36,014 nucleotides of DNA from an uncultured Candidatus Cloacimonadota bacterium (lineage in GTDB: Bacteria > Cloacimonadota > Cloacimonadia > Cloacimonadales > CAYQPF01): assembly GCA_964419225.1 (NCBI GenBank), contig CAYQPF010000035.1:1-36014 (forward strand). Direction: 5' to 3'. Each line of letters starts with the position of its first letter. The stretch's first letter is position 1. The translations under genes and the position numbers were made by a program. The notes beneath the pieces were generated by a model that saw only the letters and a program-made list of their open reading frames with translations, made no database searches and was not told where the DNA came from. Shown piece after piece: positions 5,516 to 35,950 of this stretch.

Positions 5516-6670
5516 CTATGGTTTGACAAATCTGCCCAGGAAAAGAATAGAATTGGTTTCATTATCCATAATTGCAAAGAGGAATGGGTGATCTGCTTTG
5601 AAAGTAATAGGATCAGGTGGCAAGCATTTAGCCATATTAACAGCAGTAGCAGCTGCAGCTACTGTCTTTTTTTCATCAATTTTCAATGCAGTTTTATGGA
5701 TAACTTTTGATATAAAAAGTCTTTCGTCTGAAATTCCTGAGAAGTCTGCTGAACCAAATGCGGTAACTAATCCCATCTTAATAAGAGGTTTCTTAAGATC
5801 ATATTCCATTTCCAAATCAAATTTTGGCAAACTTAGATGCACAATACCAGGTATCCCAGAACGCTTGGGGAGAATCTGTGCATTTATTACGTTCTCTAAA
5901 GCCTGTAAACCATCATCATCTCTAGGTAAAAAAATATACAGAGATTTTGTTCTGTTTTTATAAGGTATCTCTATAAATTGATATTCATCCGTTTCATAGT
6001 GGAAATAATTTGAGCTATCTACCATAAAATTCATTTTTACAGTCTCATTTTTAGATACTTTAAAATCATCTAAATGTGTAAGTGTTGTGTCAAAGCTTTT
6101 GGCCCATTCTCCACTGAAATAAACAGCATTTGTGAGAACCAGACTTGTAGCCTTTGGATTCAGATCATCCGGTTTAATCAATTCCTTAATCATATTGTTT
6201 GTTTGGGATAAAACCCATTTATTTATTATTTCTGCTGACTCAACATTCTTTCCAAAGTTCAAGGATTCAGCCTTTGCCTGATAATTGACATTCAATAATT
6301 TTCTGTAGTCAGGTTTGATCTTAAAACCATAATTGAACCAGATAGCATTAGCAATTGTAAGCTGATTATCTTTATCTGTGGAATTACTCAACTTCATCAA
6401 TTGCTGTCCAAGTCTTTCAGAGGTAAAATGCTTGTTAAGATACAGAACTTTTTCGAATTCTTTTCTGGTTTGTTTTCTGGCACCTTCAGCAGTCATTAAC
6501 AGAGCTATATCAATACTCAGAGGCGAGAAGAAAAGGTTTTTGCCATCCTCTTTCAACTCATGATACAAATCAAAGGAAAACCTGTTCAGAGAGCTACCCT
6601 GAGAAATTGTTTGAGCAAATAAACTGCAACTCATTGTTATTAAAATCAGGCCTAAAATTTGAAACCTCAT
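5516..6670 (-). CDS. Secreted serpin (serine protease inhibitor)
   Basis: N-terminal signal peptide. Serpin hinge/RCL reads 'EKKTVAAAATAVNMAKCLPPDPITFKADHPFLFAI' and aligns to the alpha1-antitrypsin RCL and 'PF(L/V)F' C-terminal block. SD GGAGG lies 5 nt upstream of the ATG. Confidence 0.85.
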   Translation of the reverse strand: MRFQILGLILITMSCSLFAQTISQGSSLNRFSFDLYHELKEDGKNLFFSPLSIDIALLMTAEGARKQTRKEFEKVLYLNKHFTSERLGQQLMKLSNSTDKDNQLTIANAIWFNYGFKIKPDYRKLLNVNYQAKAESLNFGKNVESAEIINKWVLSQTNNMIKELIKPDDLNPKATSLVLTNAVYFSGEWAKSFDTTLTHLDDFKVSKNETVKMNFMVDSSNYFHYETDEYQFIEIPYKNRTKSLYIFLPRDDDGLQALENVINAQILPKRSGIPGIVHLSLPKFDLEMEYDLKKPLIKMGLVTAFGSADFSGISDERLFISKVIHKTALKIDEKKTVAAAATAVNMAKCLPPDPITFKADHPFLFAIMDNETNSILFLGRFVKP

Positions 6671-11122: not shown

Positions 11123-14100
11123 TCATTCTTCTAATCTTACCTTACAGGCAAGGGCTTTTTCCGGCTGTCCTGCTTTTTCATACAGATCACATAAATGTTT
11201 ACCAACCGTAGTTGTATAGAGATGATCCGGGCCAAAGTATTTCTCACAGATAGCTAAGGCTCTGATATACAAAGGTTCGGCTTCTGTATATTTCCCTTGA
11301 GATTTATATATTCCTGCTAAATTGCTCAATGAACTCGCGGTTTTTAAATGTTCAGGGCCAAGTATTTTTTCGCTTATAGCCAAAGCTTTCAGGTTAAATA
11401 TCTCAGCTTGAGCAAATTTGCTTTGAATCTTAAACAAATCTGCCAGACTATTGAGTAAACTCACAGTATCTGGATGCTCTTCACCCAGAGTTTTTTCCTG
11501 GATCATTAAAGCTCTTTGATAAAGCGGTTCGGCTTTCTCATAAACTCCTTGTTTTCTGTACAGATCTCCCAGATAGTTAAGTGTTTTCGCAGTATCAGGA
11601 TGTTCCATTCCCAGAATCCTCTCCCTGATTTCCAATACTTTGAGGTATAGGTGTTCAGCCTGATCAAATTTACTCTGATTGTGATAAAACACAGCCAGAT
11701 TATTCAGGGATAATGCTGTACTGGGATGTTCTTCACCCAGAACCGTTTTCTGAATGTTCAAAGCTCTTAAATAGCTAATTTCAACCTCATCATATTTACC
11801 CTGTATATCATATAAATTTGCTAAATTGTTCAGTGTGGCTGCTGTTTCATGATGATCAACTCCCAATGTCTCTTCTCTTATTTTTAAACATCTTAGATAA
11901 TAAATCTCAGATAACTCAAATTTACCTTGCTCAGTATATAAGTGCGATAAATTATTAAGCATAGTCGCTGTTTCAGGATGCTCAGCACCAAAGACTCTTT
12001 CGGAAATTTTTAAGGTTTTCAGATACATTGACTCTGCCAAATCTAATTTGCCCTGATTCGTATATAAAATAGCCAAATTATTGATCACTCCTCCAGTATT
12101 TGGATGTTCTGAACCAAGCTTTTCTTCTAATATTTCTAAAGCCTGTAAGAACATAGATTCACCCAGGTCATATCTTCCTTGATTTACATACAGGAGTCCC
12201 AGATAATTAATAGTTAAGGCTGAGTTCACATGCCTTAATCCAAAAAGTTTCTTTTGAGTTTCCAAAGTACTCAGATAAAGGACTTCTGCTTGATCATATT
12301 TTGTCTGACAAACATACAAATATGCCAGATTTATAGCTGTTCGGGCTGTTTCCTGATGCTCGGATCCATAGACCTTCTTAAAAATATCCAAAGACTTTAA
12401 AAACAACAACTCTGATTGATCATATTTACCTTGACTCATATATAATGTAGCCAGATTATTCAGAGAAAGTGCTGTATCTGGATGATCTGAACCTAAAACT
12501 TTTTCTCTAATATTAAAGGCTGTCTGGAATAAGAGTTCAGCACGGTCATTTTGACCCAACACATAAAACATACACGCCAAAAGATTAATTGAACTTGCAG
12601 TATCCGGATGTTCTTCTCCGAGTATTCGTTTATGGATTTCCAAAGCTCTATTCAAATTTGTTTCAGCTTTAGTAAAATCATATTTTTCTGCAAAATAGTC
12701 TCCAGCTTTAGAGTAATATTGTGCAGCCTTAATCTCCTCACCCGCACATAAATAATGATTGGCGATGTCTTCAGCATTCGAATCAAGCTCTTTTGCAAAT
12801 AAACGTTCCATAGCTTGAGCCGCAAGCAAATGCAATTGTTGCAAACGTTGAGTAAGCATACGCTGATATGCAATATCCTTAATCAGCACATGTGAAAATA
12901 TGTAACTGATCTCATCAAAATTTGTCCAAACCCTCCTGCTTTTTCCAAAACTTAGATCTTCTTCAATTTCCATGCCCAACATATTAGCAAGCAATTCGGT
13001 ATTGAACTCCAATCCCAAAACACAGGCATTTTGCAGAGTTTGACGAACTCTTTCTGTTAGGTTATCAATGCGGTTACCAATAATGTCGGCAATACCGAAA
13101 GTGCTTATCAGAGTTGTATCCACAGTAATATTGTAAAATTGATCAAATTGGTTATTCTCCTTTAAATAAGCTGTCAATTGCTCAATAAAAAATGGATTTC
13201 CTTCTGACCGGGTTATTATTAATTCTAATGTTGTCCTGGGTATATTGCTATGATTCAATAACTGGCTTATCAAGTTTTTACTACCTACTGGTGTTAAATG
13301 GTTCAGATCCATAACTTCCTTCCTGAAACCTGGCAAACCTAAATCTACCTGACTGCCATCTTCATTATAACGGCAAGCACAAATGATGTGTACAAAAGGA
13401 ACTGAGTTTTCACCTAAAGCTCTAAAATATTCCAGTGTTTTTGTCTCTATCCACTGAGGATCATCCAAATGTATGATAATTGGTTTCTGCTCTGCTAAGG
13501 CTTGTAAAAAAGAAACAAAAGCATGCTTAATCTGCTCTGATCTTTTTTCCGGGGGCAAAAAACTGAATATCGAATGCTCCCACTCATAACCAAGCAGCGA
13601 AGCAATAAAAGATTCTATGCGCAAGAGTTCCTGATCTTCCTGAGCTAGTTCAGACCATGTCCTGTGGAATTTTTCCAGGTTACGCTTAATAGACTGTAAA
13701 TGTTCAGTACCAAAGTAGCTGTGAAGAATCTGTTTTACAGGTTCAAGAGATTTTTTACTGACCGGATCACAAAAAGTAAAGAACTTATGAAAGCAGGAAT
13801 CTGGAAGACCTTTTATGGCTTCAGATATGAGTCGGCTTTTACCAACTCCGGCTTCTCCTGAAACATAAACAACAGAGCTGTCCTTGGCCTTCAAGAAGCT
13901 TTGTAAAACCGATATTTCTACATCCCGCCCGGTAAATTCACTTTCGGACAAATTTAATTTCTCTGATCTGAAACCCTCCAACCGGTAAACATTGACTGGG
14001 GCAGAAAACCCTTTAAGCTCAATGAATCCAATATTCGAAAATATGTAACGATGATGCAAATCTCGTTGTAACCAAGTATCAGTAATGACCCTTCCATCTG

Positions 14101-15106
14101 CAGACTTGCTCAATAAGCGTGCAACCAGATTAACTGCTGCTCCCACTGCCGTGTATTCACGAGTATGCTTTACCCCGACAAAACCTGCATAAACATTACC
14201 ACTGGCAATACTCATAAGCAGTTTAGGAATTGTGTTAGCAACATCAAGAGCAAAACGGCAAATCCGGTCCAGGGTATTTCCCTCAGATTTAGGTAACCCA
14301 AAGAGGATAAAGCCCTCCAGTCCTTTGCCTGTCCCGTCCAGTCTGGTCAAAAAACCACTATAAGCATCCAGTTTATCATGCAGAACAGCCAAAGTTTGTT
14401 CCCACTCCTCAACAGCTATCTGACTTAGATCTACAAAGCAAAAGGCTGCATCACGGATTTCATTAGCCGGCTGCTCATTTAAAAGACGTTTATGACAGAA
14501 TTTCTCATAAGAAGCGTGGGAGAAAGGATAATCCAAACAAAGATCAGGATAAATCGTTTCTGTTTCAACTGCATTAATCCTGTCAATTTGCTCCAAAACT
14601 CCTTTTGACCAGGCGACAGCTTGTTTCGCAACTGAAAGTTGGGAGATCTCCTGTAACGGTTCGCCATAGAAAACATATTCATTTTGATACTCATTTTGAA
14701 AGATCTGCCAATTAATCATTCCGGAACTAATTGTTAACCTTACGGCTATCTTAAAATCACCGCAGGCAGAAGAAAATATTCTATGTTTCGCGAAATATTG
14801 TTCTATCTTCTTTACAACATTAACAATTCTTTCGGGTTTTCCCTCAGGAAACAAAGTACAAAAACCATCTCCGGCAAACACACTGACGAAACCGCCATTT
14901 TTCTCTACAAGATTTAAAGGATATGTAAATATTTCTTCCAGAAAACGGCTTAATTCTTCGGCTCCTCTTTTACCATGTTTACGAAATTCATTGCTGATAA
15001 CGGTAAAATCTGCTATATCAAAAAACAAAACAAAACTTTCGAAACTTCCCGAATATCTGTCATTTTCAAAACGGTTAAGAAAAAAAGGCGGTATATATCT
15101 AATCAT
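11123..15106 (-). CDS. Adenylate/guanylate cyclase (tandem class-III cyclase-homology domains) - AAA/STAND NTPase - TPR-repeat signalling protein
   Basis: Cyclase blocks read 'FFDIADFTVISNEF...FAGDGFCTLF', with a second block 'FCFVDLSQIA...'. Walker A reads 'VSGEAGVGKSRL'. At least 12 TPR_10/12-type repeats carry the recurring 'EHPDTA..LNNLA.LY..QGKY..AE' unit. The ATG at 15106 is preferred over the GTG at 15127 because an AGGGAG SD lies 6 nt upstream of it. Confidence 0.8.
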   Translation of the reverse strand: MIRYIPPFFLNRFENDRYSGSFESFVLFFDIADFTVISNEFRKHGKRGAEELSRFLEEIFTYPLNLVEKNGGFVSVFAGDGFCTLFPEGKPERIVNVVKKIEQYFAKHRIFSSACGDFKIAVRLTISSGMINWQIFQNEYQNEYVFYGEPLQEISQLSVAKQAVAWSKGVLEQIDRINAVETETIYPDLCLDYPFSHASYEKFCHKRLLNEQPANEIRDAAFCFVDLSQIAVEEWEQTLAVLHDKLDAYSGFLTRLDGTGKGLEGFILFGLPKSEGNTLDRICRFALDVANTIPKLLMSIASGNVYAGFVGVKHTREYTAVGAAVNLVARLLSKSADGRVITDTWLQRDLHHRYIFSNIGFIELKGFSAPVNVYRLEGFRSEKLNLSESEFTGRDVEISVLQSFLKAKDSSVVYVSGEAGVGKSRLISEAIKGLPDSCFHKFFTFCDPVSKKSLEPVKQILHSYFGTEHLQSIKRNLEKFHRTWSELAQEDQELLRIESFIASLLGYEWEHSIFSFLPPEKRSEQIKHAFVSFLQALAEQKPIIIHLDDPQWIETKTLEYFRALGENSVPFVHIICACRYNEDGSQVDLGLPGFRKEVMDLNHLTPVGSKNLISQLLNHSNIPRTTLELIITRSEGNPFFIEQLTAYLKENNQFDQFYNITVDTTLISTFGIADIIGNRIDNLTERVRQTLQNACVLGLEFNTELLANMLGMEIEEDLSFGKSRRVWTNFDEISYIFSHVLIKDIAYQRMLTQRLQQLHLLAAQAMERLFAKELDSNAEDIANHYLCAGEEIKAAQYYSKAGDYFAEKYDFTKAETNLNRALEIHKRILGEEHPDTASSINLLACMFYVLGQNDRAELLFQTAFNIREKVLGSDHPDTALSLNNLATLYMSQGKYDQSELLFLKSLDIFKKVYGSEHQETARTAINLAYLYVCQTKYDQAEVLYLSTLETQKKLFGLRHVNSALTINYLGLLYVNQGRYDLGESMFLQALEILEEKLGSEHPNTGGVINNLAILYTNQGKLDLAESMYLKTLKISERVFGAEHPETATMLNNLSHLYTEQGKFELSEIYYLRCLKIREETLGVDHHETAATLNNLANLYDIQGKYDEVEISYLRALNIQKTVLGEEHPSTALSLNNLAVFYHNQSKFDQAEHLYLKVLEIRERILGMEHPDTAKTLNYLGDLYRKQGVYEKAEPLYQRALMIQEKTLGEEHPDTVSLLNSLADLFKIQSKFAQAEIFNLKALAISEKILGPEHLKTASSLSNLAGIYKSQGKYTEAEPLYIRALAICEKYFGPDHLYTTTVGKHLCDLYEKAGQPEKALACKVRLEE

Positions 15107-15133
15107 AATTAACTCCCTACTTCTCACGGAAGA

Positions 15134-25034: not shown

Positions 25035-25820
25035 CTATAATCCAAATAATTTCTTAAATAATGATTTTTTTGCTTCCGGCTGCTTCTTAAAGCGTTCCGC
25101 TCCAAAATAATTTACTTTTTCGTTTTTCAGCATCTTCATGGGATTGATTTCGGAAAGTAATTTAGCAGTATGATCATTGGTTTCACTCCGAATAGCTTCT
25201 ACTGCATCAACATAACTATAATCCTGTGTATGACAGTGAGTATCAGAACCTAAAAAATGTGCATATCCGTTGTAGATCATTTCCCAGGCAGTATCCTGAA
25301 TCTTCTTGCCATAACCACCCAACAGGCTTCCGGTATTGATCTGCATATAAATATTCCGATGAATCAGATCTTCTACTGCATAGGGATTATTAATAAATTC
25401 TGTATATCTTTCAGGATGAGCCAAAATCGGTTTATAACCCTGTTTTACCAGAATATAATAAATATCGAGCAAACCGTTGGGAAAACCATTCATACTGGTT
25501 TCCATAAGAATATAATTTGTATTATTTAAGGTCAGGTTTTCCTTGATAACATCCAAGTGAATATCTTCACTAAGAAATATTTCTGCACCACGGTAAAGTT
25601 CAATATTTATATTCTCTCTTTGTACTGCATCTTTTAATATCTGAAATTTCACATTTTGAATTTCCGCTGTATTATCATAAAATCCCTTCATGTAATGGGG
25701 AGTCAAAATTACACCTTTAATTCCCTCCTCACTCATAAACTTCAAATAATCTAAAGATGTATCCAGATCCGGAGATCCGTCATCAACATCAAACATAATG
25801 TGAGAATGTATATCAATCAT
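25035..25820 (-). CDS. CpsB/CapC-type PHP-family protein-tyrosine phosphatase (capsular polysaccharide biosynthesis)
   Basis: Diagnostic N-terminus 'MIDIHSHIMFDVDDGSPDL'. Further His/Asp metal ligands are seen in 'LTPHYM', 'LAHPERY' and 'LGSDTH'. The ORF is 261 aa. Confidence 0.85.
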   Translation of the reverse strand: MIDIHSHIMFDVDDGSPDLDTSLDYLKFMSEEGIKGVILTPHYMKGFYDNTAEIQNVKFQILKDAVQRENINIELYRGAEIFLSEDIHLDVIKENLTLNNTNYILMETSMNGFPNGLLDIYYILVKQGYKPILAHPERYTEFINNPYAVEDLIHRNIYMQINTGSLLGGYGKKIQDTAWEMIYNGYAHFLGSDTHCHTQDYSYVDAVEAIRSETNDHTAKLLSEINPMKMLKNEKVNYFGAERFKKQPEAKKSLFKKLFGL

Positions 25821-26572
25821 ATGCCATCCTTACTAATTTGTATTGCCTGAGCAAATTCACTGATTAATGCTTTATCCGGAGTGTTCTCGAAAACAGTCCC
25901 AATCACCACAAAATCTGCTCCGGCTCTTGCTTTACAAGCCGCTTCCTCAGGTGTTTTTATGCCACCCCCGACAATAAGAGGGATTTCAATATTATTTTTT
26001 ACAACGGTAATCATTTCTTCAGGCACAGAGTTTTTAGCTCCGCTTCCGGCTTCCAAATAAACCATTCGCATGCCTAAATACTGCCCGGCTAAAGCATGCG
26101 TCACCGCAATATCAATTTTCTTTCTGGGTATGGGAATACTGTGACTCATGTACTGCACCGAAGTCAAACTGTTGGATTCGATCAACAAATAAGCAGTACC
26201 AATACTTTCCAGATTATACTTTTTAATCAAAGGAGCAGAACGAACCTGTTCTCCTACTAATAATTCCGGATTCCTGCTGCTCAGCATACTTAATAAGAGT
26301 ATTGCATCAGCATATGGAGAAACGAAATTAAACAATCCTGGGAAGATTATTAATGGTATTTTTACCTGCTTTTTTATTTCTCTTAAACACGATTCAAAAT
26401 TATCATGGAGCATCATACTACCACCTATGAGAAGTGCATCTGCCCCACTTTCTTCGCAATCCAAGGCAAAATCTATAGCAGTTCCCTCGCTATGCTTATC
26501 CGGATCGATAAGACAGAAAAACCCAGTTCTTTTCCGGGCAATTTCTAAGAGTTTCTCATATGTTTTTATCAT
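25817..26572 (-). CDS. PcrB/GGGP-synthase family (geranylgeranyl- or heptaprenyl-glyceryl phosphate synthase) TIM-barrel prenyltransferase
   Basis: The ORF is 251 aa with 'FFCLIDPDKHS', 'LLIGGSMM' and a C-terminal 'LIVGGGIKTPEEAACKARAGADFVVIGTVFE' phosphate-binding block. An ATGA overlap joins it to cpsB. Confidence 0.8.
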   Translation of the reverse strand: MIKTYEKLLEIARKRTGFFCLIDPDKHSEGTAIDFALDCEESGADALLIGGSMMLHDNFESCLREIKKQVKIPLIIFPGLFNFVSPYADAILLLSMLSSRNPELLVGEQVRSAPLIKKYNLESIGTAYLLIESNSLTSVQYMSHSIPIPRKKIDIAVTHALAGQYLGMRMVYLEAGSGAKNSVPEEMITVVKNNIEIPLIVGGGIKTPEEAACKARAGADFVVIGTVFENTPDKALISEFAQAIQISKDGI

Positions 26573-26573
26573 A

Positions 26574-27404
26574 TTATTTACCTATCCACATTATTATCAG
26601 GATGAAAAACATATTCAGTTTCATCAAATTAGAGATATAATTCAAATTTTTCTTGGTAACATTTCTGTTCAAAAATAAGTAAGAGATCAACAAAGGCAAA
26701 ATGGTAAAAATATTGAGCAAATTAAAAGTCAGCATCGATATCATTCCATGCCAAAATAGAGAAAAAACACCAATACCCATCGCTAATATCAGCGTAAATG
26801 TAATCGAAAAAGTCCAAGTCTTTCCCATTACAATTGGTATAGTTTTTGCCCCCTGACTCATATCACCTTCCACATCTTCCGTATCCTTGATGATTTCCCG
26901 GATCAATGTATATGTAAAAGCAATAAATGAAATTGCCAGCGCATAACTGACATTATCATTGGCTATTGCCCCGTAAAAGAATGTCGAAGCTGCAGAATAT
27001 GCTATCAACAAATTACCCAACAAAAATGTCTTTTTCAAATATCCTGCATAGACCACTAACAGCAATGTATTCACAACTGCAATTATGATACACCATTTAT
27101 GCCAGGTCAAAACACTCAGAAAAAAACCGGTAATCATCAGAATCCAGGCATACTTTAAAGCCGTACCTGGTGAGATTTTACCAGAAGGTAAAACCCTGTC
27201 TTTTCTGTTTATCTTATCGATTTCCAGATCATAATAATCATTAAGTACATAACCACCTGCTGCTATAAAAGTGGCAGCTAAAGCACTTAAAATTATGACC
27301 CTGATATCAAAAACAGTTGCCTTGATCATTGCCCCATACACTACACATAAAGCAGTAAAAAAGCAATTGAAAGGTCTGATTATCTGCAGAAATGCTTTTA
27401 TCAC
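26574..27404 (-). CDS. UbiA-family prenyltransferase, DGGGP-synthase-like (digeranylgeranylglyceryl phosphate synthase homologue)
   Basis: Eight or nine TM helices. Asp-rich motif 'NDYYDLEIDKINRKDR'. It sits immediately upstream of the PcrB/GGGPS gene, which is the archaeal ether-lipid gene order. Confidence 0.7.
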   Translation of the reverse strand: MIKAFLQIIRPFNCFFTALCVVYGAMIKATVFDIRVIILSALAATFIAAGGYVLNDYYDLEIDKINRKDRVLPSGKISPGTALKYAWILMITGFFLSVLTWHKWCIIIAVVNTLLLVVYAGYLKKTFLLGNLLIAYSAASTFFYGAIANDNVSYALAISFIAFTYTLIREIIKDTEDVEGDMSQGAKTIPIVMGKTWTFSITFTLILAMGIGVFSLFWHGMISMLTFNLLNIFTILPLLISYLFLNRNVTKKNLNYISNLMKLNMFFILIIMWIGK

Positions 27405-28292
27405 TTAAGGTAATCTGTCCTTGATCATGGCGACAAATTCAACCAGTATCTCATTATTATCCATATTCTTGATCATTTTATAGGAATCTTCCAGGAGCTT
27501 TTCTGCTGTCTTGCGTGCCTTATCCAAACCCAATAAGGAAGAATATGTTATCTTATTATTCCGATAATCTTCACCTGGTTCTCTGCCTAAATATTCAAAT
27601 TCACCGATTTCATCCAATATGTCATCTATAACCTGATAAGCTAAACCTAAATTCAATGCATAATTCCCAATTGTGATGGTTATATTATCTTCCGCATCCG
27701 CCATTATGCAGGCCAAATCTGTGGCTGCCTGAAGCAGTGCACCCGTCTTCTTCAAATGAACATATCTCAACACATTGATTCTGACATTCTTGTCCGTCGA
27801 TAAAATATCAACAGCCTGACCACCTATCATTCCCCGTGTTGATACTGCCCGGCACATGGTATTGATGCAGCGTACTGCTTTTTCAGGTTCCTGAACCAAG
27901 GTAAGCATCTCAAATGCTTTGGTGATTAATGCATCCCCGGCAAGTATTGCCGTTGCGGGATCAAACTTCTTGTGGCAGGTCGGCTGTCCTCTTCTCTCAT
28001 CTGAATTATCTACACTCGGTAAATCATCATGAATCAATGAAGCTGTATGGATCATCTCCAATGCACAACCAACAGGCAGAACAGGATTCAGGACATTAGC
28101 ATTCTTCTTGCCTTTCAACATCTCATAAACAGCAAAAAAAAGAATTGGTCTAAGCCTCTTCCCTTCAGAAAATACAGAATATCGCATAGCCTCAAAAAGA
28201 CTTGACGGATTCTCTTTTACCGGAGTCAGATAACTGTCCAGAGCGTCTTCCAATATTTTTTTCCTACTATCAAAGTATTTTTGGATTAACAA
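27405..28292 (-). CDS. Polyprenyl diphosphate synthase (GGPP/FPP synthase, trans-IPPS)
   Basis: FARM 'LIHDDLPSVDNSDERRG' and SARM 'YQVIDDILDE' are present. The ORF is 295 aa. Confidence 0.85.
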   Translation of the reverse strand: MLIQKYFDSRKKILEDALDSYLTPVKENPSSLFEAMRYSVFSEGKRLRPILFFAVYEMLKGKKNANVLNPVLPVGCALEMIHTASLIHDDLPSVDNSDERRGQPTCHKKFDPATAILAGDALITKAFEMLTLVQEPEKAVRCINTMCRAVSTRGMIGGQAVDILSTDKNVRINVLRYVHLKKTGALLQAATDLACIMADAEDNITITIGNYALNLGLAYQVIDDILDEIGEFEYLGREPGEDYRNNKITYSSLLGLDKARKTAEKLLEDSYKMIKNMDNNEILVEFVAMIKDRLP

Positions 28293-30585: not shown

Positions 30586-33132
30586 TTATTTTACTTCCGC
30601 ATCTCCACCTTGTACATTCTTCGGTGTTATCTGTTTAACTAAAAATGCTGATAATAATTCCATTACCCCATTTCCTTCACTTCCACCACTCTGGACAAGA
30701 AAATCAGGAGTTATCTTCACATTACTGCTGGATAATAACTTCGTTACTTCTATGGCTACAAGTCCTTCCGCACCTACAGCATTCTGTTGAAGCTTATATG
30801 CAGCTGCAGTAGCTTCACCTTTTGCCAGAATTGCAGTACCCTCTGCCTTACCTACAAAGGTTATACCATCAGACTCACCCTTCTTCTGCAACCTCACAGC
30901 TTCTGAACTTCCTTCCGCCTCAGTAATAACCTGTGCTTTTATGTTCTGTGCTATCTCTACATTGATGGCAGACTGGACAAGATCTCCCTGCCTGTCTGCT
31001 TCAGCCTTGGTCTTCTCAGTCGCGATACGGCTCTGCTGAGCTTTCTGCTGTTCAACATACATCGTCTGTTCCTGCTGAGCAATAATCTTCTGCGTCTGTG
31101 TATTCATCAGATCCTGAGGTAACTTAATCTGACAAATTAAAACTGAAACCAGCTCTACATGGTATTTTTCCAGTTCACGGCGGGCCCTTTCTTCAGCTTT
31201 TTCCTGTTCCTCATGTCTGTTTTGCATGAAGTTCATTGCTGATGTCGAGGATGCCTGATTCCGGAAACTGGAATCTATCATCGGATGTATAACATGATCC
31301 ACCAAATTCTCGATCGATCCAATCTTTGCCACCATATACGGTGCCTGATCAGGTCTGATTCTGATCACAACTTTTACCGATACACTTATCTCAAAACCAT
31401 CCCTGGAAATTACCTTCAACGGATCAAATTTTGTCGCTTCCTCTTCATCCCAATCTATTGTGATATTGGTTGTATTGACCACATACACTATGAAAGCCCG
31501 ACGGTTCAAATAATATATACCAGGTCCTACAACTTCACTCTGAATACCACGGAATCCTTTGGGAACTACATATCGTTCAATCCCTGCTTTTAGTCTGTCT
31601 TCAAAAATATCTGGTTTCACCGCAGGAACAGTCTCTCCGGCACTCTCATTCAAATCAGTCAGGGTAACAATTCTTTCTTCTTTTTGCTGTTCTGCTTCTG
31701 ATACGATCAGCGAAGCTTTGGGTTCTTCCCCCACATTAGAGATAACCACTGCAACTTCACCTCTCTGAATTGTGGTTACATCATCCTGATCTACAGTAAA
31801 CATTAAAGGATTTATATAATATGTACCTGGCTTAAGCACATCAAGCTGAGGTCCTCTCTGACCACCTTTATCCAAAAATGCCGTTATGTTCTGATAATTA
31901 TTATGCCCTTCTATCGGCTTCGCTACATACTCATTCTCAGGTAAGGGCTCACCATCTCTAGCCGTAACTAACCCAATCTTTGATGCCTGAATTACAGTTG
32001 CATCTTTGATAATTACATTGAATAAGTTAGTATTAACACGGTAAGTACCAGGTAATAAAATCTGGCATTGCGGTCCTTTTTCTCCGTTATTTCTCAAAAA
32101 CTCCTGCCCGTTTTCAAAATTAGAATGCCCCGGCACAACCTTGGCCAACAACCTTCCTTTGGTTATCTGAGCTCCGTCATTGGCTGTAATGACACCAACC
32201 TGACCCTGACCAACCACAATCGCATTTATCGGTTTAACGTTGAATAATTTAGTATTGATCCGGTAATTTCCCGGAGGCAATACTGCGATTTGCGGTCCCT
32301 TCTGCCCACCATTGTCCAGGAACATCTTGCCATCCTGGAAAGAATTACATTCTGCATCCTCTGCAAAAATCCTTCCTGCCGGTACCGGATTACCGTCTAT
32401 CGATTCCACAAGACCAATTTTACCTTCACCGATTGACGTTACTTCCACAACTGTTACGATAAATAGTCTCGTATTGATACGATAATTACCGGGAGGTAAA
32501 ATTCCTATTTGCGGTCCTTTCTGACCTTTGTTTTCAAAGAATTTCCGTCCGTCTTGAAACAGATTACAGTCCACATGCTTGGCAAAAATCCTTCCCGGAG
32601 GTACTGATTCACCGTCTATCGACTCTACCAGCCCTATCCTGCCTTCCCCGATTGTTATTACAGAATGAATTGTGACCTGAAACATTCTGGTATTTATTCT
32701 ATAAGTTCCAGGAGGTAAGATATCAACCTGCGGTCCTTGCTGACCGTTATTGTTCAAGAAGGCTTCACCATCCTGAAAATAATTCGATTCCACAGGTTCA
32801 GCAAAAATGCGACCCTTTGGTACCGGAATACCGGTTCTGGATTCTACAAGACCGATCTGATTATCTCCGATGATCACAAAATTAACTTTCTCCGACACAA
32901 AAATGTAAGGAACTACAAAGTGTAAACCGGGTCCAAGTGTCTTTACCTGAACACCAACTTCGCCACTCATAGCAAAAACACGGCCTTCAGGCATACTCTT
33001 ACCAAACCAGCGACGCTCCAATATCCGGATATTATTACCGCCTACCACTATAAAAGATTTGATAATGGTTATCAGCAGTATCAAGGCTCCCAGTCCGATC
33101 AGAATGTTCGTAAATGTCATCAATTCTAACAT
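30586..33132 (-). CDS. Flotillin-like SPFH/band-7 membrane protein, carrying an N-terminal array of five ~75-aa tandem repeats upstream of the SPFH and 'flotillin' coiled-coil (EA-rich) regions
   Basis: N-terminal TM helix. The repeat unit 'IGLVES.DG.PVP.GRIFA....CN.FQDG..F..N.GQKGPQ...LPPG.YRINT.LF.V' occurs 5 times. It resembles the start of YqiK-type SPFH domains. The C-terminal EA/Q-rich coiled coil is typical of flotillins. SD AGAGAGG lies upstream. Confidence 0.7.
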   Translation of the reverse strand: MLELMTFTNILIGLGALILLITIIKSFIVVGGNNIRILERRWFGKSMPEGRVFAMSGEVGVQVKTLGPGLHFVVPYIFVSEKVNFVIIGDNQIGLVESRTGIPVPKGRIFAEPVESNYFQDGEAFLNNNGQQGPQVDILPPGTYRINTRMFQVTIHSVITIGEGRIGLVESIDGESVPPGRIFAKHVDCNLFQDGRKFFENKGQKGPQIGILPPGNYRINTRLFIVTVVEVTSIGEGKIGLVESIDGNPVPAGRIFAEDAECNSFQDGKMFLDNGGQKGPQIAVLPPGNYRINTKLFNVKPINAIVVGQGQVGVITANDGAQITKGRLLAKVVPGHSNFENGQEFLRNNGEKGPQCQILLPGTYRVNTNLFNVIIKDATVIQASKIGLVTARDGEPLPENEYVAKPIEGHNNYQNITAFLDKGGQRGPQLDVLKPGTYYINPLMFTVDQDDVTTIQRGEVAVVISNVGEEPKASLIVSEAEQQKEERIVTLTDLNESAGETVPAVKPDIFEDRLKAGIERYVVPKGFRGIQSEVVGPGIYYLNRRAFIVYVVNTTNITIDWDEEEATKFDPLKVISRDGFEISVSVKVVIRIRPDQAPYMVAKIGSIENLVDHVIHPMIDSSFRNQASSTSAMNFMQNRHEEQEKAEERARRELEKYHVELVSVLICQIKLPQDLMNTQTQKIIAQQEQTMYVEQQKAQQSRIATEKTKAEADRQGDLVQSAINVEIAQNIKAQVITEAEGSSEAVRLQKKGESDGITFVGKAEGTAILAKGEATAAAYKLQQNAVGAEGLVAIEVTKLLSSSNVKITPDFLVQSGGSEGNGVMELLSAFLVKQITPKNVQGGDAEVK

Positions 33133-33669: not shown

Positions 33670-34092
33670 CTAATTTATAACTAACATGTGGGAGAGTTCA
33701 ATCGCTCTTGCACCAGTCTGCTTTGCCCATTTAGTAGTCAGCATCTGGTTAGCAGCTTTTTCAAACTCTCCAGATTTGACAAAACTAAGAGTGGTCTTAA
33801 ACTGCAATAGTCCTTTAATTCCAAGGTTGAAACACATATCCAGAAGCACCAGTTTACGGTTTTCTGAGAGGTTGTTGTAGATATCAGGAATGCTGGAAAT
33901 AAGCTCCAACTCACATCGCAAAATATCATTTTGAAGCAGTTCTTTGGCTTCCTGCTTTGAAATCCCTCAGTCTTCAAGATTACGACTGACTCCGATGGTC
34001 AGTTTACCTGATGTGCAGCGATACGGCTTAAGTCTCAAACCTTCATGCCTGATGAGTTGCTCTTTGACTCTAACTAATAAGCTCTGTTCCAT
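33670..34092 (-). pseudogene. T4-type (GH24) phage lysozyme gene interrupted by one in-frame TGA at 33967-33969
   Basis: The minus-strand frame reads 'MEQSLLVRVKEQLIRHEGLRLKPYRCTSGKLTIGVSRNLED*GISKQEAKELL...NRKLVLLDMCFNLG...KWAKQTGARAIEL'. This aligns along its whole length to T4 lysozyme ('[25 protein letters not shown]', 'RRCALINMVFQMG', 'SRWYNQTPNRAKRV'). GGAG lies 7 nt upstream of the ATG. Confidence 0.7.
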
Positions 34093-34322
34093 CTATACTC
34101 CAAATGTTATATTCAGAGTGATAGGAACCTGCTGCTGGTAATTTTATCAAATCGGCTTGCCTATGGATGCCACAGAAATTATCATTGACAGATGGTGTTT
34201 GCTCAGATTAATGTTAGCTAATTAAGAGCTTAAATTTGAGTCTATATTTTACGATCAAGCATGATCATATAGATATCAAATGAGTAGGAGTGGGAGGATG
34301 CATGATAAAGCTGTAGCGATGA

Positions 34323-34514
34323 TATCTATACCGCAGCTTGGTACAATGGGCTAAGCCAGCCAATGAACTATGTATATTTGATATGCACGACAACGTATGG
34401 GAGTGGAATTGGGACATTCATGGTAGCTATCCCAGCACTCAGGGTAACCAGCATAGTGCCCTGAGCAGGTCACTTAGTGCAATTCAAACGATCTATGAAA
34501 TATGCTGCAAATGA
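34323..34514 (+). pseudogene. Remnant (C-terminal fragment) of an FGE-sulfatase/SUMF1-domain gene
   Basis: A 63-codon open frame reads '...AKPANELCIFDMHDNVWEWNWDIHGSYPSTQGN...'. It matches the 'LGLYDMSGNMEEWCWDWHGKF' block of the 17..2212 protein and the canonical FGE 'YDMxGNVWEW' signature. There is no start codon and no upstream domain. Confidence 0.5.
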
Positions 34515-34570: not shown

Positions 34571-35614
34571 ATGTTAAATATTATTCGCATTACTCTTAAG
34601 AATCATCCTAAATTAAAAGATATAGACATATTGGGTGAAGATTTAGCTAAATCTCTTGATGCCTCAAAAGAAAATGCTGAACTTCTTGATCTTATATGTG
34701 ATTGTATGTACCATAGCGTAAGGCATTTTTTGGAAACTCCCTTTGGTGCAAGTACCTTCGAACTAACTGTCCATTTTATTGATGCCTATGGAAGAGAGTT
34801 AATAAGAACGTATCGGGATTATCAATATACACAAAGTACACTACCAGACATTCGAAATATGCATAAGGCAGATACAGATCAAGTGATCGATAGATTATTT
34901 GTTATTATTGTTGATAAAATTTTCCAGTTGTACTATCGACATTATGTCATTCCTGTTTACGAGGTAACTGATTTCGAAGGTGATCACTTCGCAGCTTCAA
35001 GTTTTATAATTAATCATAATAATAAAAATTATCTACTTACAGCAAAGCATGTTTACTTCGATATGGATAAAGAACAACCTGTTTTGCTATCTGATAGGTC
35101 TTATTGTTTTGGATGTAAAAGAGAGGCTATAGATATCTCCAAATCTATATATACAAAAGTGCATTTACCAGATTTTATTATTATTCCTATCGATAACCAA
35201 CTAACAAGAGAGATTATAGGTGATAATTTTCAAATAATCCCCGATAATCTCATTGATAAGTCAAAGTCTGAGACAAAAGGCCCTTTGATTTGTCACGGTT
35301 TTCCATATTCAAGGAATAAAAAACATTGGACACCAAGGCAAGACGTTTATATTCTAGGCACTTATGTGAAGTTTGATGAATGTAGTTTTGGTTTGACTTA
35401 TGATATAGAAAATACTAAACGTATGAATGGAACTATTGGAGCAGGTGTATCAACTCCTGGTATGAGCGGTTGTCCAATTTGGGAATTGTCCCTACTAAAT
35501 CTGATTACTAAATTTTCGCTAAAAGGTTTGTTTACAGGTTATTACAAAGAATTAAAAAAGAATAGGGGTGAGTACATCTATAAAGCCATTGAATATATTG
35601 ATAATCAGGTTTAA
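34571..35614 (+). CDS. Intracellular trypsin-like (S1/chymotrypsin-fold) serine peptidase with an uncharacterised ~130-aa N-terminal domain
   Basis: The ORF is 347 aa with no signal peptide. Catalytic-triad contexts are 'NYLLTAKHV' (His), 'LPDFIIIPID' (Asp) and 'GVSTPGMSGCPIWE' (GxSGxP Ser). The region is more AT-rich than the window's core genes. Confidence 0.6.
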   Translation: MLNIIRITLKNHPKLKDIDILGEDLAKSLDASKENAELLDLICDCMYHSVRHFLETPFGASTFELTVHFIDAYGRELIRTYRDYQYTQSTLPDIRNMHKADTDQVIDRLFVIIVDKIFQLYYRHYVIPVYEVTDFEGDHFAASSFIINHNNKNYLLTAKHVYFDMDKEQPVLLSDRSYCFGCKREAIDISKSIYTKVHLPDFIIIPIDNQLTREIIGDNFQIIPDNLIDKSKSETKGPLICHGFPYSRNKKHWTPRQDVYILGTYVKFDECSFGLTYDIENTKRMNGTIGAGVSTPGMSGCPIWELSLLNLITKFSLKGLFTGYYKELKKNRGEYIYKAIEYIDNQV

Positions 35615-35671: not shown

Positions 35672-35950
35672 TCAATCAATATAATCTATGAATTGCACCT
35701 GAGCATCGTTTAATCCCAGCCTGAGACATCGGGAAGTGTAAGACTTGGTCTCTTTCATTACTTCTGCTGAGAACTCATCTCCAAGCTGATTTGATACTAT
35801 TTCCATTAGTTTCCGGAGATGCTCACTTGATACCTTTTCTGACTTCGGCATATCTGATAGCATTTTAATGGTTATTCTGGCAGATTCTCTGTTATTAAGA
35901 TGTAACAAGTTAAGATCTTTTGACCCGGATTGTGCAGTAGAGGTTTGCAA
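35672..35950 (-). CDS. Hypothetical small protein (92 aa), convergent with the trypsin-like protease gene
   Basis: ORF only. No recognisable motif. Confidence 0.25.
   Translation of the reverse strand: MQTSTAQSGSKDLNLLHLNNRESARITIKMLSDMPKSEKVSSEHLRKLMEIVSNQLGDEFSAEVMKETKSYTSRCLRLGLNDAQVQFIDYID

Follow-up and report, generated by a model that had tools for sequence, protein, structure and literature searches.

Immunity gated by proteolysis has lately come to be seen as a major theme of bacterial defence; in the systems characterised so far, a protease fused to a sensor works together with a pro-effector dedicated to it. Trypsin-like proteases fused to sensors cleave adjacent latent effectors (an MBL nuclease, an alpha/beta-hydrolase, Pepco or EACC1) upon infection (PMC12799240; PMC12642450; bioRxiv 10.1101/2025.09.03.673762). 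A stand-alone caspase-like protease of E. coli 27-18K, which has no dedicated effector, also provides phage protection in E. coli (PMC12642450, Discussion). Here we describe a protease gene from an uncultured Candidatus Cloacimonadota bacterium which, to judge from its sequence, is best described as a stand-alone, orphan-domain form of the defence-associated PA-clan proteases, carried by a phage-like element. The gene lies close to the end of a contig of 36,014 nucleotides (CAYQPF010000035.1), the whole of which is referred to below as the window. The gene and the parts of its product are as follows:

34571-35614, + strand: complete open reading frame of the protease, 347 aa, with an orphan N-terminal domain and a predicted chymotrypsin-fold serine protease
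34571-34906, + strand: N-terminal domain (aa 1-112), predicted to be a small alpha/beta domain
34865-34945, + strand: long helix (aa 99-125) ahead of the first beta-barrel
34946-35611, + strand: protease domain (aa 126-347), two beta-barrels and a C-terminal helix (336-346)
35048-35050, + strand: codon of the catalytic His160 (TAKHV), invariant across 44 sequences
35171-35173, + strand: codon of the catalytic Asp201 (DFIIIPID), invariant across 44 sequences
35465-35467, + strand: codon of the catalytic Ser299 (GMSGCP), invariant like the adjoining G297 and G300

The reading frame starts with an ATG preceded by GAAAGG and runs uninterrupted for 1044 bp in DNA of 32% GC. With a GC3 of 0.23 the gene is a compositional outlier and hence foreign in composition.

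The product is predicted to be a catalytically competent, cytoplasmic serine protease of the PA clan (chymotrypsin fold). In an alignment of 44 family sequences, whose mean column identity is only 17%, eight residues are invariant (A158, H160, D201, G243, P245, G297, S299 and G300), and the window protease keeps all eight. The triad has the chymotrypsin order of His, Asp and Ser, with spacings of 41 and 98 residues, and the GxSG nucleophile/oxyanion motif is preserved, as are the two six-stranded beta-barrels and the C-terminal helix that characterise the clan. The window protein has no transmembrane or signal-like segment, and a signal-like N terminus is found in none of the 44 relatives. The preliminary description, which had proposed a cytoplasmic trypsin-fold protease behind an unfamiliar N-terminal domain, is borne out by the invariant triad and by this lack of export signals.

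Membership is assigned at the level of the clan only, because the window protein matches neither Trypsin_2 nor Trypsin and its relative P0002 stays below the threshold (14.2 bits against Trypsin_2, with a cutoff of 27.6). A Pfam scan of the window protein gave no trypsin or peptidase match even at E ≤ 10, which leaves it below the gathering thresholds of both Trypsin_2 (PF13365) and Trypsin (PF00089); 27 of the 44 relatives match Trypsin_2 at E ≤ 0.01, the best of them at 1.2e-6. Searches with the single sequence against PDB sequences (phmmer) and PHROGs returned nothing. The family profile reached a staphylococcal exfoliative toxin and V8-type S1B proteases in the PDB at 7e-5, and the protease-HamA chain 9wh1_A at 0.044, while the structural matches in BFVD are generic RNA-virus proteases and the visible matches of the whole-model structure searches are proteases only. 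The S1B enzymes (S. aureus exfoliative toxin B, V8/GluV8 and Spl) act outside the cell as toxins or virulence factors and are made with a signal peptide and a propeptide; the window family, in contrast, carries neither, and its genes lie in accessory or defence settings. Weak matches to Csa5/Cas11a (E 0.04 and 0.009; aa 76-167) are regarded as chance, since they run from the linker helix into the first strands of the protease.

The N-terminal domain is an orphan, as had been described, but it is shorter than the proposed 130 residues or so: it extends over about 112 aa and passes into the helix of aa 99-125, whose C-terminal half is common to the stand-alone relatives of ~250 aa, starting at about residue 113-125 of the query. 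In the model of the window protease the domain has strands at 4-10, 64-70 and 76-81 and helices at 22-28 and 33-54, with a pLDDT of about 55-83; an AF2 model built from the two-sequence alignment was discarded (pLDDT 39.5). Residues 1-112 occur in just two proteins, the window protease and P0002, the starts of which align, and three of the four closest relatives do without them. No relative of this region was found in Pfam, PADLOC, PHROG or the PDB, and its profile matched neither the small genes that flank stand-alone relatives nor the open reading frames of ~100 loci. Fusion with a neighbouring gene was accordingly rejected as the origin of the domain, since the profile matched no neighbouring gene of the relatives.

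The protease is rare. A word-indexed search of 5.8e9 clustered proteins retrieved a single non-self relative, P0002 (42% identity, 325 aa), and an exhaustive HMMER search of 1.84e9 representatives retrieved 49 proteins at E ≤ 1e-3. All of these but the window protein and P0002 are stand-alone proteins with a median length of 267 aa, which align only at residues ~113-345 of the query. None was found in 185,579 species-representative genomes, nor in IMG/VR or INPHARED (50,697 phage genomes). This distribution, together with the GC3 of 0.23, marks the gene as accessory. The clade is rare, fast-evolving and horizontally mobile. The proteases P0004 and P0005 are only 26-29% identical to that of the window, whereas the lysozymes beside them are 66% identical to the window copy. 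Such a distribution bears directly on the alternative that the gene encodes a secreted or periplasmic housekeeping protease for quality control, of the HtrA/DegP type. The protein is of another kind. A PDZ domain is absent from all 44 family members (Pfam), and the window protein has neither the C-terminal PDZ domain nor the export signal or membrane anchor of HtrA, DegP and DegS (S1C). The family is also missing from every species-representative genome searched, and its gene here is compositionally foreign. All PA-clan subfamilies score about equally against the window protease, and we regard an HtrA/DegP-like function as effectively refuted.

Among defence-gene profiles, the protease domain scores best, to a modest degree, with the proteases of LmuA, retron-XI RT, Avs2 and HamA. 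The protease-type LmuA model of PADLOC matches the window protein at E 6e-6 (24 bits), aligning aa 142-304 with positions 17-157 of a profile of 425, and it matches 22 of the 44 relatives, with a best value of 6.4e-17, so that it outscores Trypsin_2 for both; relatives also match RT-Protease_XI (7+4), Avs2, HamA1 and PDC-S45. LmuA belongs to Lamassu and HamA to Hachiman, and such systems are reported to use trypsin-like proteases for the activation of pro-effectors (PMC12799240, PMC12642450). In common with these enzymes, the window protein appears to be a cytoplasmic PA-clan protease with an intact triad, found among defence genes and on mobile DNA. Unlike them, it has no LmuA C-terminal domain, HamA domain, STAND NTPase or RT, and carries only the orphan domain of 112 aa. 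The protein ends with the protease domain, so that the C-terminal region specific to LmuA is absent; no RT domain was found in it (Pfam), and an Rfam scan of the window, which would bear on a retron ncRNA, returned nothing; and none of the recognised sensor fusions (STAND, HamA, ABC3C, DRT, SPARTA, Dsr2 and others) is present. The caspase-like protease of E. coli 27-18K offers another comparison. That enzyme is a single gene with no dedicated effector partner; no such partner was found either in the 400 bp that follow the window protease or among the examined neighbours of its relatives, and the window protease could likewise cleave host or phage proteins directly. However, the E. coli enzyme is a Cys protease, whereas that of the window is chymotrypsin-like with a catalytic Ser, and the two show no homology.

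The genomic setting of the protease is that of a phage-like element. Directly upstream lie three further features:

33670-34092, - strand: pseudogene of a T4-type lysozyme, interrupted by one in-frame TGA (33967-33969) and 62-69% identical to intact copies
34093-34191, no strand assigned: boundary element upstream of the lysozyme (...GGATGCCACAGAAATTATCATTGACAG), with TTGACA at 34185-34190
34338-34514, + strand: fragment of a gene for an FGE-sulfatase domain (DMHDNVWEW; E 2.8e-4), debris within the slot described below

The lysozyme pseudogene matches Pfam Phage_lysozyme at 2.2e-14. An independent assembly reproduced its TGA; at this place the intact relatives encode Arg, Ser or Cys. Probing with the lysozyme gave 80 loci from species-representative genomes, mostly Candidatus Cloacimonadota MAGs; about 60 of them are copies of one Cloacimonadota-type module, and at least 12 MAGs have 2-4 copies. 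The operon is conserved in the order lysozyme, 152 aa, ~163 aa, 146 aa, portal and a 580-aa fusion of prohead protease and capsid; the portal is phrog_12 (1e-17), the prohead protease is phrog_3017 (2e-22), and the matches in phages are of the XkdF type. The lysozyme thus heads a multi-copy phage-like element, found mainly in Candidatus Cloacimonadota MAGs. The window copy is the remnant first gene of this module and no incidental neighbour. The 152-aa gene, the portal and the capsid are all missing from the window, where the element has decayed to the nonsense-mutated lysozyme. As a separate observation, the lysozyme family has a Cys in place of the catalytic Asp20 of T4 lysozyme (motif YRCTxG; Cys26 in the window copy, codon 34015-34017), invariant in three aligned copies, while the equivalents of Glu11 and Thr26 are kept.

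Upstream of the lysozyme start, at a distance of ~60-105 nt, lies a conserved intergenic element (GGATG-N6-7-GGATGCGACAGA-N9-11-TTGACAG; window 34130-34191, L009 853-960, L028 5890-5940 on the - strand), which could be an operator or promoter, or the end of the element. Every lysozyme copy has it, with a GGATG...GGATG direct repeat and with its TTGACAG end facing the cargo gene. Among nine aligned loci, the window included, similarity ends right after TTGACAG, and a variable slot begins there. A 141-aa lysozyme adjoins the proteases P0004 (six independent contigs) and P0005 divergently upstream, and the short contigs of P0002 and P0003 begin within the boundary element, as would be expected if assemblies break at multi-copy repeats. 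With the latter two placed by alignment, all five of the closest family members would be the first gene of the slot. The preliminary description had noted the broken lysozyme in AT-rich DNA but had missed that it is syntenic with the modules of other genomes. The protease is, on this synteny, probably cargo of a prophage or other mobile element rather than a gene of a chromosomal defence island.

The contents of the slot vary. At the loci L021-L076, in each of which the lysozyme lies at about 6001-6426, the slot holds BREX PglZ (2e-113), type I restriction-modification (R-M) genes, and HKD/PLD-SNF2 (DrmD-like) helicases with large N6/N4 methylases; it also holds genes that are not defensive, namely C25 gingipain-like T9SS proteins in about 16 of 54 loci and TetR/OEP efflux genes. 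Given the C25/T9SS and efflux genes, some of what is counted here as slot may simply be the host sequence next to an insertion, and the slot itself may represent either a hotspot of defence genes or the edge of an insertion. The cargo slots of P2/P4-type prophages and satellites are defence hotspots. The Cloacimonadota element resembles them in its conserved phage-like backbone and its sharply bounded variable slot with R-M, BREX and other defence genes, but it is a distinct element from an uncultured phylum, its slot also contains non-defence genes, and the position of the slot inside the element is only putative. We know of no description of this phage-like module with its variable slot.

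A protease at this position might serve the element itself, by processing a repressor, lysis or virion protein, or by degrading host immune proteins as an anti-defence factor. The placement of all five closest homologues directly after the boundary element, divergent to the lysozyme operon, would suit such a role, as would the phage-like nature of the element, with its phrog_12 portal and its XkdF-type prohead protease of phrog_3017. None of the 80 lysozyme loci from representative genomes contains the protease, however, which makes it optional cargo and no core function; the element has a prohead protease of its own; the protease is intact in the window, where the lysozyme carries a stop codon and no structural gene is left; and no homologue occurs in the 50,697 phage genomes or in IMG/VR. 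A service to the element is therefore improbable in our estimation. The lysozyme was also considered as a pro-effector of the protease and rejected: it is an ordinary 141-aa enzyme of the T4 type, all 80 loci have it without the protease, and in the window it is broken while the protease is intact.

Downstream of the protease, the window adds one feature before the contig ends at 36014:

35672-35950, - strand: convergent open reading frame of 92 aa with a TTG start, without homologue or family

These last 400 bp contain only this frame and no remnant of an R-M gene. In the relatives, the genes beside the protease are the following:

P0002 (L001, 1298-5794): two type II methyltransferases, then three unannotated reading frames of 160, 391 and 331 aa, all on the same strand
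P0003: a convergent HsdM/Eco57I-like methyltransferase follows
P0004: a convergent, complete type I HsdM-S-R set with abutting stop codons, in six independent contigs, then M78/HigB
P0005 (L015, 2031-2039): hsdM, on the same strand, begins 8 bp past the protease stop
P0050 (distant relative): lies between a Shedu (SduA_C) gene and an AAA_15/21 ATPase
P0007 (distant relative): adjoins PemK/Phd toxin-antitoxin genes
P0008 (distant relative): adjoins PD-(D/E)XK and DUF3368 genes
P0006 (distant relative): IS fragments nearby
P0040 (distant relative): adjoins GGDEF and M78 genes
P0011 (distant relative): an isolated orphan gene amid housekeeping genes

In P0002, P0003, P0004 and P0005, four of four relatives whose contigs run on past the protease, the next gene or the next but one thus encodes a DNA methyltransferase. 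The spacing in P0005 suggests that the protease and hsdM are co-transcribed, and the operon downstream of P0002 could represent an unusual kind of R-M or defence system. The 331-aa frame of that operon has a weak 4Fe-4S ferredoxin-like Cys motif. At the loci of P0006 (L016-L019, on several metagenome contigs) a trio recurs, made up of an unfamiliar gene of 152/158 aa, a stand-alone protease of 277 aa and a hydrophobic protein of 169 aa, and this arrangement could be a small protease-effector module. [quoted passage not shown] An SMC-like gene (LmuB) was found neither beside the window protease, to 400 bp downstream, nor at L001, L003 or L009-L015.

The recurrent methyltransferases raise the alternative that the protease is an accessory of R-M systems, either as a PrrC-like guard that fires when R-M is inhibited by a phage or as a control factor that removes a restriction subunit by proteolysis until a newly arrived mobile R-M system has its methylation in place. 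Both roles have precedents, in PrrC, which is embedded in the EcoprrI locus, and in the ClpXP-dependent degradation of HsdR during restriction alleviation. Against the count of four in four stands the variation of R-M type (I or II) and of orientation from locus to locus, which fits co-residence in the slot better than a dedicated partnership; the remaining 400 bp of the window hold no R-M gene, and the more distant relatives have no adjacent R-M. We consider a dedicated R-M accessory unlikely, though somewhat likelier than the other alternatives.

These neighbourhoods also bear on how far the initial proposal of a single-gene abortive-infection or defence effector can be carried. Its defence part gains from the kinship of the domain with defence proteases (LmuA, 6e-6; 22 of 44 relatives) and from relatives that sit among R-M, Shedu and toxin-antitoxin genes. 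Its single-gene, abortive-infection part goes further than the sequence does: the contig breaks off 400 bp past the protease, methyltransferase or R-M genes come next in four of four relatives, and abortive infection, a phenotype in which infected cells die or are arrested, would be a conjecture here. So would a sensor-like role of the N-terminal domain, an orphan of two proteins that three of the four closest relatives lack.

Because the immediate neighbours of the window protease are pseudogene debris, the open frame might also be a stranded, functionless remnant, the left-over cargo of a decayed prophage-like element. Its neighbours have decayed (a nonsense mutation in the lysozyme, loss of the 152-aa, portal and capsid genes, and an FGE-sulfatase fragment), no recognisable terminator was found, and promoter-like sites are no commoner than in shuffled sequence (11 against 12.7 expected). 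On the other side, 1044 bp remain uninterrupted at 32% GC, the eight invariant residues are kept and the start aligns with that of P0002. The single nonsense mutation of the lysozyme indicates that the decay is recent, and the intactness of the frame is for this reason weak evidence either way. A functionless remnant seems to us quite improbable.

We tentatively favour, with somewhat less than an even chance of being right, the explanation that the protein is a conflict-system protease, engaged in defence against phages, in superinfection exclusion or in the rivalry of mobile elements, which is latent and cleaves its targets on a trigger. It is supported by the slot, which holds BREX, type I R-M and SNF2/methylase genes, by the methyltransferases that follow the protease in four of four relatives, and by the similarity to defence proteases. 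The gene would have arrived horizontally as accessory cargo of a Cloacimonadota-type phage-like element, in the variable slot beside its lysozyme; its product would be held latent until a trigger led to the cleavage of cellular or phage proteins; and the N-terminal domain of 112 aa, gained only in the lineage of the window protein and P0002, might act as a regulatory or target-binding module. The sequences show the fold and intact triad, the lack of export signals, the rarity and foreign composition of the gene, its synteny with the phage-like module, the defence genes of the slot and the kinship with protease domains of defence systems; that the protein acts in defence at all, its latency and triggering, its substrates and any sensing by the N-terminal domain are inferred. 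Several points count against the conflict explanation. The window neighbours are pseudogene debris, with no defence gene beside the protease in the 400 bp downstream; the likeness to defence proteases is confined to the domain and modest (24 bits), and in the PDB the family profile matches exfoliative toxin and V8-type enzymes better than protease-HamA; the slot is not solely defensive; and P0011 lies amid housekeeping genes. A role of the window protease in phage-host conflict is nevertheless plausible on sequence grounds.

Beyond the decayed element, the window carries chromosomal polysaccharide, ether-lipid and SPFH genes and has nothing in common with the lysozyme loci that were fetched. 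Within a polysaccharide-biosynthesis cluster, genes for PcrB (GGGP-synthase-like), a UbiA prenyltransferase and a polyprenyl synthetase stand in a row (25817-28292, - strand). PcrB-UbiA-type genes belong to the archaeal-type ether-lipid set reported for Cloacimonetes/FCB bacteria (PMC7852524). Together with the distribution of the lysozyme family, they would place the window in Cloacimonadota/FCB. An 848-aa SPFH/Band-7 protein (30586-33132, - strand) has about five tandem repeats of ~95 aa (...GPQ..ILPPGxYRINT...) before its SPFH domain. An intact PEGA and FGE-sulfatase gene lies at the opposite end of the contig (17-2212, + strand). A full-length bacterial serpin (Pfam Serpin, E 9e-108) is encoded at 5516-6670 (- strand), 29 kb from the protease and with no evident link to it, and a 1333-aa protein with nucleotide-cyclase, AAA_16 (STAND-like) and TPR domains at 11123-15127 (- strand), 19 kb from the protease, was not treated as a partner.

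If the protease is a stranded remnant, the finding is an ordinary one. The more surprising by-product of the analysis is the multi-copy Cloacimonadota phage-like module with its sharply bounded cargo slot. A more specific and in our judgement improbable picture is that the clade of the window protein and P0002 comprises stand-alone immune proteases borne by phage elements, R-M-linked guards that need no pro-effector and in which the domain of ~110 aa would be trigger-sensing or autoinhibitory, and that the lysozyme-proximal slot is an unrecognised defence hotspot. A minimal protease with a small orphan domain, placed again and again next to R-M on a phage-like element, would extend proteolysis-gated immunity to proteases that are effector-independent or act as guards, and would do so in an uncultured phylum. 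With the boundary element and the variable slot as markers, Cloacimonadota metagenomes can be searched in practice for further accessory and defence genes.
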